64,000 nucleotides of DNA from an uncultured Prevotellaceae bacterium (GTDB lineage: Bacteria > Bacteroidota > Bacteroidia > Bacteroidales > Muribaculaceae), in the NCBI GenBank assembly GCA_900318205.1, contig ONJS01000002.1, positions 18,689 through 82,688 of the forward strand, written 5' to 3'. Under the pieces are notes generated by a model. It did no database searches. It was not told the DNA's origin and saw nothing but the letters and a program-made list of their open reading frames with translations. Numbering within the stretch: the first letter of the stretch is position 1; each line of letters opens with the position of its first letter. Below, in pieces: positions 31,268 through 35,611 of this stretch. The translations under genes and the position numbers were made by a program.

Positions 31268-31552
31268 CACCGCAAAACAAGATCACAAAGGATGTTTTGC
31301 GACGCTATTCATTAATCAATACCGAATCCCCCGTTCTTTTCCTATCTCTTTTATTCTGAGGAAATGACAATCTATATATTTTTGGCTGATTGTTCATATA
31401 CGGGCGATTTGAATTGAAGAAATGAGGTTACTAGAACAGACAAATCATTAGTATAATTTGGAATATCATGCGTTGTTGCGCATGGCATGGTGTAGTGAAA
31501 CAGAGTGGCTGTTTTTTATTGTCACACCATGATAGCTTTATATAATTTTTAT

Positions 31553-33706
31553 ATGTATAACATTAATCAATTAAATGCGATGAGCGACGAACAACTTCGT
31601 GAGCTCGCCAAGTCTATGGGTATTAAGCGCGTTGATTCGTTTAGCCATGATGATCTTGTGTTTCAGGTTTTGGACCATCAGGCAGAGACAGAAGCAGCTA
31701 ATGCTCCTGAACCCACTACCAAACGTCGTCGTGAACGCATTCGCCAGCCGGCAGCCAAAGCAAATGGTAATGAAGTGATCAAGGACGATGCCGTGGCACC
31801 CAAGAACCAAAGTAAAGAGAAAAACGATATAGTAGAAACCAACGAGGTTACCAAGCCCGTTGAAAAAGAAGCACCTGAGCCCACCGAGAAACCTAAAGCT
31901 CAGAAAAAAGATAAAGACAAAGACAAAGAAGCAAGCGATACGCAGGAACCGCCTAAACGCAAGCGTGGCCGCCCTTCAGCTGCCGAAAAAGCAGCTCGTG
32001 AAATAGCGTTGAAAAACAGTCAAGAAGAACAACCCGTTGCTGAAGAGCTGACTGCCGATCAGCAAGAGCAGCCAGCAGCCGAAGTGGTTGTTAGCGAGCA
32101 AGCTCCTCGCCGTCGTGGTCGCAAAACCAAACAGGTCGTTGATGAGCAACCGGTTCTGCCCTTTGACAATACTGAGCTTCAGCCTGAACAAGAGATGTTG
32201 GAGCCTATGACCGAGGAACCTGTTTATGATGAGTCATTGCAAGAGCCCATCAATGAGGAAATCGGCTATATGCCGGAGAATGAGCCTGAAATGATGGCAC
32301 CCCAACCCGAGGAACAGCATGAGAGGGAGGATGTCTCACTCAATACGTTCTTCAATACAGGTAGCGGATTCACTTTCAAACCTCGTACTCAGCAGGAACG
32401 CGAAGAAGCAATGCGCAAGGCCGAGGAAGAACGCCGCCGTCAGGCTGAACAGGCCGCCGTTGCTCCCATTGTTATCCAGGAACCTAAAGTGGTAAAGGAG
32501 AGCAAGAGCAAGAAGCGCAAGATGAAACAGCAGCAACAGCAACAGATTGCTGAAGTCAATCCCTATCTGGACCAGCCCTATAACTTCGACGGAATTCTTG
32601 AGGCACAAGGTGTGCTCGACATCGCCCCCGAGGGTTATGGCTTCCTGCGCTCCAGTGATTATAATTATCTCACGTCTCCTGATGATATTTACGTACAGCA
32701 GTCCCAGATCAAGGCTTACGGCCTCAAGACTGGTGACGTTATCGAGGGAACCATTCGCCCGCCCATGGAGGGTGAGAAGTATTTCCCGATGAGTGAGATA
32801 CATCTGATCAATGGCCGCACGCCTGCTTATGTCCGTGACCGCGTACCGTTTGAGCATCTGGTTCCTCTGTTCCCCGATGAGAAGTTTGATCTCGTGAGCA
32901 AAACCCATCCCACGGTTTCACAACGCGTGGTGGATATGTTCTCGCCCATCGGTAAAGGACAGCGCGGCCTCATCGTCGCTCAGCCCAAGACAGGTAAGAC
33001 CATGCTCTTGAAGGAGATTGCCAATGCCATCTCGGAGAATCATCCTGAAACCTATATGATCATCCTGCTCATTGATGAACGTCCTGAGGAGGTGACCGAT
33101 ATGGCTCGTAGTGTCAATGCCGAAGTCATCGCTTCTACCTTTGACGAGCCGGCTGACCGCCATGTCAAGATTGCCGACCTCGTATTGAGCAAGGCCAAAC
33201 GCCTGGTAGAATGTGGTCATGATGTGGTCATCCTGCTTGACTCGATTACTCGTCTGGCTCGTGCCTACAACACCATTGCTCCTGCTTCAGGAAAAATCCT
33301 GACGGGTGGTGTGGATGCCAACGCATTGCAGCGACCCAAGCGCTTCTTTGGTGCTGCCCGTAATATCGAGGGCGGTGGTAGTCTTACTATTATTGCCACT
33401 GCATTGACCGAGACTGGCTCCAAGATGGATGAAGTGATCTTTGAGGAATTCAAGGGTACTGGTAACATGGAGTTGCAGCTTGACCGCAAGTTGTCCAACA
33501 AGCGTATCTTCCCGGCTGTGGATGTCATGGCATCAAGTACACGTCGTGACGACTTGCTGCTGCCGCAGGATACCTTGAACAAGATGTGGATCATCCGTCG
33601 CTTCTTGAGCGACCGCACTTCGGTCGAGGCCATGGAGTTTGTAAAAGAGCGTATGGATCGAACCCGTGATAACGAGGAGTTCCTGCTCACCATGCAACAA
33701 GGCTAA
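31553..33706 (+). CDS. rho: Transcription termination factor Rho with long N-terminal disordered insertion
   Basis: [41 protein letters not shown]. Confidence 0.97.
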
Positions 33707-33717
33707 TCATATTGATG

Positions 33718-34155
33718 ATGGGGCGCATTTTAGGCATAGATTATGGACGTAAACGCACTGGTGTTGCCGTCACCGATCCGTTACAGATCGTGGCAGGTAA
33801 TCTTGCCACTGTGCCCACTCACACGCTCATGTCGTTCATCAAGGATTATATCGCGCGAGAGCAAGTGGAACGCATTGTCATCGGGCAACCCACACAACTC
33901 AATGGCGAACCCAGCGAGAGCATGAAATACATCACGCCGTTTGTCAACAAGTTGCGCAAGGAATTGCCTGATATGCCTATCGTGATGTATGACGAACGCT
34001 TTACAAGTACGATTGCTCATCGCGCGATGATTGATGGTGGCATGAAAAAGAGTGACCGCCGTGACAAGTCACGCGTTGACGCCATCGCTGCCACCATTAT
34101 TCTTAACGATTATCTACAGAGTAAATTAAATCAACCTTTTAATACTGAATCATGA
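33718..34155 (+). CDS. ruvX: YqgF/RuvX RNase H-fold nuclease
   Basis: ILGIDYG, DERFTS, DAIAATIIL. Confidence 0.93.
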   Translation: MGRILGIDYGRKRTGVAVTDPLQIVAGNLATVPTHTLMSFIKDYIAREQVERIVIGQPTQLNGEPSESMKYITPFVNKLRKELPDMPIVMYDERFTSTIAHRAMIDGGMKKSDRRDKSRVDAIAATIILNDYLQSKLNQPFNTES

Positions 34156-34724
34156 TTTTACCGATTTATATCTATGGTCATCCCGTGCTCAGGACCGAGA
34201 ATGCCACTGTCACGCCTGACTTTCCTAATCTTCAGGAGTTTATTGAGAATCTGAAGGAAACCATGTACCATACCCAGGGTATTGGTATTGCTGCGCCTCA
34301 GGTGGGCGTCAATGCACGCATTGTTTATATTGATGTTGATGTGCTGGCCGAGGATTTTCCCGAGCTCAAGGGCGTTAACATGCTGCTTATTAATCCCGAA
34401 ATTACGGTCGATGAGACTTCTCCGTTGATTTCACGTGAGGAGGGATGCCTCAGTGTACCCGGTATTCACGAGAATGTTCACCGTCATGAGAAAATCCACC
34501 TGCACTGGCAAGACGAACAATTCCAGGAACATGACCAGGACATTGAGGGCTATCTCGCCCGCGTCGTCCAGCATGAGTGTGACCACTTGGACAAAACGCT
34601 GTTTGTGGATCGCATTTCACCTATCCGCAAACAGTTGATCAGAGCCAAGCTGAATAATATGATGAAGGGTAAAGTGTCTTGCAGCTATCGTTGCAAAGTG
34701 GCGCCTCTCAAGCGTAAAAAATAA
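34152..34724 (+). CDS. def: Peptide deformylase
   Basis: GIGIAAPQVG, EGCLS, QHECDH. Confidence 0.96.
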   Translation: MILPIYIYGHPVLRTENATVTPDFPNLQEFIENLKETMYHTQGIGIAAPQVGVNARIVYIDVDVLAEDFPELKGVNMLLINPEITVDETSPLISREEGCLSVPGIHENVHRHEKIHLHWQDEQFQEHDQDIEGYLARVVQHECDHLDKTLFVDRISPIRKQLIRAKLNNMMKGKVSCSYRCKVAPLKRKK

Positions 34725-34787
34725 GAAAGTGGAAGATGTCTCACGACAGCCTCCACAAACCTTAAATCTAATACCATGAAAAACACA
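34720..34787 (-). ncRNA. Candidate ~67 nt small RNA with own promoter and terminator
   Basis: Minus-strand TTTG (34821-34824)-N21-TACATTTG (34792-34799); hairpin 34729-34756 with GUGA loop followed by U tract. Confidence 0.65.
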
Positions 34788-34943
34788 CGTACAAATGTAC
34801 TACAGATTTTTTGAATTGTACAAACATTTTAAGGATTTTTTGTATTTTTATATAAAAATTTAGACTAAATTAATGGATTTTAATAAGCCCCTGAAGACCA
34901 ACGATGAAGAAAGTCTTTTTATGATGGTGGCATGTAACAAAAA

Positions 34944-35008: not shown

Positions 35009-35611
35009 TCAGAACTTCATACCGAAGGCAATCTGGATGTTGCCGTTCTTAGCCTTGTTCTCGCCAAGGACAGCATTATCCTTAAGCGCCTTAGTGAGAC
35101 CCATCGTGTAACGAGCCTGAACAAAAGCATTCTCGGTAAGGTTGTAGGTGGCACCCAGGCCTACGCCAAAATCGATAGCCTTTGTTCCGTCTTTGAAGTC
35201 GACAGATTTGTCATAACCCTTGGCGGCAATCTTGCTGTACACATTAAATCCTACTTGAGGACCGAGGTCGATGCTGAAGCTGGGAGCAACGTAATACTTG
35301 AACATCAAGGGAACGTTGATGTAGTTGGCATTGTATTTAATTTCGGTGGTTGTGATGTCAAAGAGGTCGAGGGCAAATGCCTTGGACTTACCACCCTGGG
35401 CGGCAAACACAACTTCGGGAGCGATGGCAAAATGAGGATTGAACTTGTATTCCATCATCAGACCAACCTGATAGCCAGGCTTCATACCATGGTCTACATC
35501 CGGTCCCCAGAAGTTAGTCATGTCAAAACCGACCTTTCCACCAAACTGAACTTGAGCGCTTGCGCCCATGCACACGATTGCAGCAGCAATCAAAACAAAA
35601 AATTTCTTCAT
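35009..35611 (-). CDS. Outer-membrane beta-barrel (PorT/porin family) protein
   Basis: Signal peptide, YINVPLMFKY, GPQVGF, terminal Phe. Confidence 0.85.
   Translation of the reverse strand: MKKFFVLIAAAIVCMGASAQVQFGGKVGFDMTNFWGPDVDHGMKPGYQVGLMMEYKFNPHFAIAPEVVFAAQGGKSKAFALDLFDITTTEIKYNANYINVPLMFKYYVAPSFSIDLGPQVGFNVYSKIAAKGYDKSVDFKDGTKAIDFGVGLGATYNLTENAFVQARYTMGLTKALKDNAVLGENKAKNGNIQIAFGMKF

Follow-up and report, generated by a model that had tools for sequence, protein, structure and literature searches.

Convergent with the peptide deformylase gene def, the window (the whole stretch of DNA analysed here, 64,000 nucleotides) carries a short minus-strand unit, which raises the question of whether it is a gene in its own right, to which family its product belongs and on what that product might act. 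Read directly over 34824–34716, the unit consists, in order, of a promoter, a 5′ stretch antisense to an ATG start region, a GUGA-capped hairpin of 12 positions and a U-tract. The promoter, the first 27 nt and the GNRA-capped terminator quoted in a first-pass annotation, made from the letters alone, all lie where it had placed them. Our analysis confirmed that this unit is a real, conserved gene for a regulatory RNA of about 68 nt that belongs to the already described FopS family. The features of the locus are:

34152–34724, plus strand: def, peptide deformylase (Pfam PF01327, E 5.5e-48), the last gene of rho-ruvX-def
34716–34728, minus strand: U-rich terminator tail of 13 nt, read directly, covering the def stop codon and the last two def codons
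34719–34786, minus strand: sRNA gene of about 68 nt, from the RF04319 match, with the 3′ end somewhere in 34722–34716
34729–34756, minus strand: terminator hairpin with a 12-position stem and a GUGA (GNRA) loop at 34744–34741, from pairing and covariation
34758–34786, minus strand: seed (R1/R1′ of FopS), nt 1–29 of the RNA, from consensus identity, predicted to be mostly single-stranded
34792–34799, minus strand: −7 box TAcaTTTG (type TAnnTTTG), read directly
34821–34824, minus strand: −33 element TTTG, read directly, 21 nt upstream of the −7 box
35009–35611, minus strand: gene for an outer-membrane β-barrel protein (Pfam PF13568, E 2e-23), upstream of the sRNA

The TTTG and TAnnTTTG elements constitute the canonical promoter of the Bacteroidota primary sigma factor. 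The RNA would start at about G34786, five bases past the −7 box, with 34787 also possible. In the hairpin, nt 31–42 (34756–34745) face nt 47–58 (34740–34729), and 11 of the 12 positions are paired, the exception being one C-U mismatch. The RNA has a folding energy of −19.3 kcal/mol (z = −3.6), which none of 200 shuffles matched, and its minimum-energy fold leaves nt 1–19 single-stranded. A generic sigma-70 and terminator scan found neither the promoter nor the terminator of the sRNA, because Bacteroidota promoters are not modelled and the U-tract is interrupted. The β-barrel gene ends with its own terminator-like hairpin and T-run, read directly at about 34975–34940, and the sRNA is therefore a separate unit, as the first-pass annotation had proposed in calling it a stand-alone RNA with its own promoter and terminator. 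On the other side, the Rho protein of the rho-ruvX-def group has 733 aa (31505–33706, plus strand), with about 300 residues between its Rho_N domain (22–62) and its RNA-binding domain (368–440), which we take to be the long insertion typical of Bacteroidota Rho.

FopS is a family of paralogous sRNAs, with 14 copies in B. thetaiotaomicron (Ruttiger et al. 2025, PMC11697453). In that species, a single-stranded 5′ seed (R1′) is followed by a terminator, the promoters are canonical and expression is induced by bile salts (PMC11697453). The RNAs pair beside the start codon of susC BT_3983 and of other first genes of polysaccharide utilisation loci (PULs), and they block translation in vitro, a block that is relieved by the RRM-1 protein RbpB (PMC11697453). 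The mechanism of FopS-10 has been worked out by in-line probing, compensatory mutations and in-vitro translation (PMC11697453).

The Rfam model of this family, RF04319, matches 34786–34719 from end to end (model positions 1–71; 50.2 bits, E 2e-6, window search at an E-value threshold), and the sRNA is also the best match when the whole genome is searched (E 3e-6). The score falls short of the gathering cut-off of 56 bits, and a scan of the whole window at gathering thresholds returned no matches. This shortfall arises because the spacer and stem differ, not the seed: nt 1–29 are the same as the Rfam FopS consensus at 29 of 29 positions. The sRNA also has the other features of the family, namely a seed at the extreme 5′ end, a single terminator hairpin, a length of 68 nt and a TTTG/TAnnTTTG promoter. 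A resemblance to FopS had been suggested in the first-pass annotation, which named an Rfam search as a check; that search does find FopS, below the gathering cut-off, and at least 118 units from many Bacteroidales families share the seed, nearly all of them with the same promoter-seed-hairpin build. The locus is very probably an independently transcribed FopS-family sRNA gene. It represents a variant linked to def, with a longer terminator stem attached directly to the canonical seed, and its product would act in trans as a repressor of translation initiation.

A copy of the variant beside def is present in 14 related genomes, the majority of which came from a flank-based search of the window genome’s own genus. 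In the alignment of the 15 def-linked orthologues, nt 1–22 are invariant and 98% of the alignment cells in the stem are paired, as against 39–62% when the partners are slid. Two stem pairs show compensatory changes, G-C to A-U and G-C to C-G. Across 11 orthologous intergenic regions of the genus, no change is seen in the seed, in the stem or in the T, A and TTTG of the −7 box, against a mean column identity of 57% over the wider aligned region, and the −33 TTTG is mostly conserved. An invariant seed and −7 box, together with compensatory changes in the stem, therefore point to purifying selection on the sRNA gene, and the conservation footprint is, as judged from these alignments, that of a functional, vertically inherited RNA gene. 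Syntenic relatives of the locus include L105, L107, L113 and L138, the last two being Muribaculaceae metagenome-assembled genomes (MAGs), and on this basis the window genome probably belongs to that family.

This footprint bears on whether the locus could be a decaying, non-functional FopS copy, or simply the terminator of def beside a chance promoter-like motif. Such a reading would fit the score below the Rfam cut-off, and the window genome (G000) is the only one of 81 in its family without an RF04319 match over that cut-off. Against it stand the signs of selection seen within the genus, with an unchanged seed and −7 box and compensated substitutions in the stem, and the E-value of 2e-6 excludes a chance identity of 29 nt to the FopS consensus. 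We consider decay or coincidence very unlikely.

A plus-strand ORF of 12 codons (34776–34814), encoding a micropeptide that starts MKNT, overlaps the unit, and the first-pass annotation had named a function of this ORF as a finding that would refute the sRNA reading. The ORF is present and its ATG lies in a plausible AT-rich context; its sequence is not conserved. Among the matches listed, its counterparts in 116 family units vary between 3 and more than 22 codons, with 7 the commonest length, and the sequence that follows MKN(T) is the −7 box read in reverse complement. Conservation is uniform over codon positions within the seed and stops at the promoter. The orientation of the terminator fits a minus-strand transcript. 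The micro-ORF was rejected on its variable length and promoter-dictated residues, and a peptide-coding function is extremely improbable.

The arrangement with def invites a further reading, in which the RNA acts in cis: convergent transcription or a short 3′ overlap would modulate def, or read-through from def would carry a site fully complementary to the sRNA and so titrate it. The tail of the sRNA lies over the end of the def coding sequence, and linkage to def is kept in the 14 related genomes despite a changing gene on the far side. Moreover, the plus-strand hairpin has no downstream U-tract, and def read-through is therefore plausible. The overlap with def, however, spans no more than about 9 nt and involves the U-tract and not the seed; the kept adjacency may be simply inherited gene order; and many unlinked loci elsewhere in the order share this seed, for which a cis role on def would not account. 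On balance, we regard action on def as unlikely, and a FopS-type RNA acting in trans as the preferred reading.

The distribution of the family was assessed at two levels. A scan of one genome per species found the exact 24-nt seed core in at least 119 stretches, and the matches listed include Paludibacteraceae, Dysgonomonadaceae, Muribaculaceae, Prevotellaceae, Tannerellaceae, Odoribacter, Porphyromonas and Bacteroidaceae. Among these matches, a GTCGNGAGAC-type hairpin and a T-run lie downstream in nearly all of 118 extracted units, and 107 of 116 FopS units have a TAnnTTTG box at a constant spacing. By covariance model, RF04319 is above its cut-off in all 80 other genomes of the window genome’s family, with 1–9 copies each at E 0.001 or better, and in 25 of 151 genomes of a sample of the order.

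In the window genome, the canonical seed was found in one copy, accompanied by weaker relatives on contigs C30 (40.8 bits) and C46 and C43 (24–35 bits), in an assembly of 53 contigs from which copies may be missing. The C30 relative (G000:C30:93305–93377, minus strand) is a second FopS-like gene, which has its own TAacTTTG box and terminator and an altered seed (CAUAGGAUUAGAUUUUU). Composite tandem units at G000:C46:8335–8497, C43:113834–114046 and C22:45800–45849 have a degenerate FopS-like head and, after it, a second, shared unit beginning GTTTATGTTAATGGTATTAGA, and show a weak similarity to BTnc231 (28.7 bits). The C22 copy directly follows an apparent tRNA 3′ end, a position that hints at a connection with integrative elements. 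In sister genomes (G022, G044, G047, G064, G079 and others), many FopS matches sit close to contig ends, a few hundred bases away at most; FopS genes there seem to border repeats that break the assembly, which could also explain the few copies in the window genome.

Some FopS promoters carry an additional element. Among the matches listed (units L023–L141), 34 of 116 promoters, from many families (e.g., L062, L075, L095), have a palindrome (ATGYT, 2–6 nt, ARCAT) at 38–33 nt before the RNA start, and in two more units it lies further upstream; 0.16% of random 55-mers carry it. It is not clearly present at window positions 34826–34812. The palindrome may be the operator of the regulator postulated in the FopS paper, whose text (PMC11697453) nowhere uses the words ‘palindrome’, ‘inverted repeat’ or ‘operator’.

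How would such an RNA act? By analogy with FopS-10 of B. thetaiotaomicron, we infer a trans-acting repressor of translation initiation, in which the single-stranded 5′ seed would pair around mRNA start codons. In the predicted register, the CAU of the seed would stand opposite AUG and its U-run opposite Lys-rich second and third codons, with nt 12–27 facing an A-rich leader without a Shine-Dalgarno sequence. The resulting duplex would block ribosome access and so repress translation.

With the seed CAU fixed on the start AUG, a mean of 15.45 of 27 positions are paired across the start regions of the genome, compared with 14.18 ± 0.45 for composition-matched shuffles, of which one in 300 reaches the real value. 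At least 20 in-register pairs are formed by 124 genes, against 31 ± 20 for the shuffles. Signal-peptide-like N-termini make up 50–59% of the best in-register matches and 35% overall. This enrichment is due entirely to pairing of the U-run with Lys codons after the AUG, the leader contributing none: for leader-only complementarity, the difference between exported and other genes is no larger than with shuffles.

When the register was left free, discrimination was lost. Across 2,739 crude gene calls, the real seed gave 209 genes with a duplex energy at or below −18 kcal/mol, within the 66–306 obtained with shuffled seeds, and many of the top matches are internal ATGs or GC-rich artefacts. The start regions of 16 susC homologues, at −8 to −19 kcal/mol by this crude method with no accessibility term, showed no outstanding seed complementarity. 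The best target candidates are mixed, comprising an EamA transporter, MurB, a prophage SU10 capsid gene and hypothetical proteins. The leader of the prophage gene, which encodes an SU10-type major capsid protein (G000:C14:23980–25386), is among the better duplex partners of the seed at −22 kcal/mol.

Two proposals of the first-pass annotation can be weighed against these results. Its view of the 5′ half as antisense to a generic translation start gains modest support, as the in-register pairing beats 299 of the 300 shuffles, and a generic start-region reading of the seed’s targets is reasonable; no specific regulon can be named. The six positions that it quoted as starts of exported proteins (589, 2952, 5192, 22647, 35611 and 45072) are indeed MKK ORF starts. 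As to its proposal that envelope-protein mRNAs are the targets, no specific envelope target is supported, and no susC start stood out.

The published circuit includes an RRM-1 antagonist, RbpB, whereas a search with PF00076 (RRM_1) gave no match in the window genome, which is 94.8% complete; the RbpB arm therefore probably does not apply here. Matches to PF00076 occur in 3 of 80 genomes of the same family, all three in one genus of 29, and in 113 of 151 genomes across the order, where at least nine FopS-positive genomes gave none; these counts come from samples of partly incomplete genomes, so that absence means not found in those searched. As no RRM-1 partner was found in most genomes of the family searched, the published FopS-RbpB antagonism cannot be the general mode of control. 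We offer, tentatively and as a possibility we would not favour over its negation, that in this family (probably Muribaculaceae) FopS-type sRNAs work without an RRM-1/RbpB-type antagonist, and that the def-linked copy may be a vertically inherited ‘housekeeping’ damper of many Lys-rich starts (MKK-type, exported-protein) and not of specific susC mRNAs. If true, this would be a differently wired version of the Bacteroides circuit.

FopS RNAs control which glycan-uptake systems gut Bacteroides make, and these results show that the seed and the gene build are spread over many Bacteroidales families, with FopS in every sampled genome of the window genome’s family, while variants like the def-linked sRNA escape the Rfam cut-off. 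For Muribaculaceae laboratories, the scarcity of RRM-1 in the family raises a concrete question. The locus itself is mainly a matter of correctly annotating a known RNA family, not a discovery.

Among described sRNAs, BTnc231 (RF04180) weakly resembles the window sRNA in its U-rich 5′ end and in a hairpin with a GUGA loop; membership was rejected, with 16 bits against a cut-off of 80.4 and an E-value of 1.1 that makes the match not meaningful. GibS (RF04182) likewise has the R1 seed at its 5′ end, and the sRNA scores 31 bits. Unlike the window sRNA, GibS is 142 nt long, with a second seed R2, an extra stem and the non-canonical promoter motif 2 (PM2), and membership was rejected on the score (31 bits against a cut-off of 115), a length of 68 nt that leaves no room for R2, and the canonical promoter. 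From FopS (RF04319) as described there are several differences. The usual AAGAUUGG-type spacer is absent from the window sRNA, in which a 12-bp stem with different arms starts 3 nt after the seed; one canonical-seed copy was found in this genome, compared with 12–15 FopS per genome in the Bacteroides species surveyed; and the host is probably a member of Muribaculaceae, whereas the FopS paper (PMC11697453) reports conservation within Bacteroidaceae. To these come the RRM-1 (RbpB) gene, for which no match was obtained in this genome, and the susC start regions, none of which is a predicted target. The two have in common that each is an intergenic, stand-alone gene of about 65–70 nt with a canonical Bacteroidota promoter and an identical 29-nt 5′ seed (R1/R1′), the single-stranded 5′ part being followed by one intrinsic terminator hairpin.
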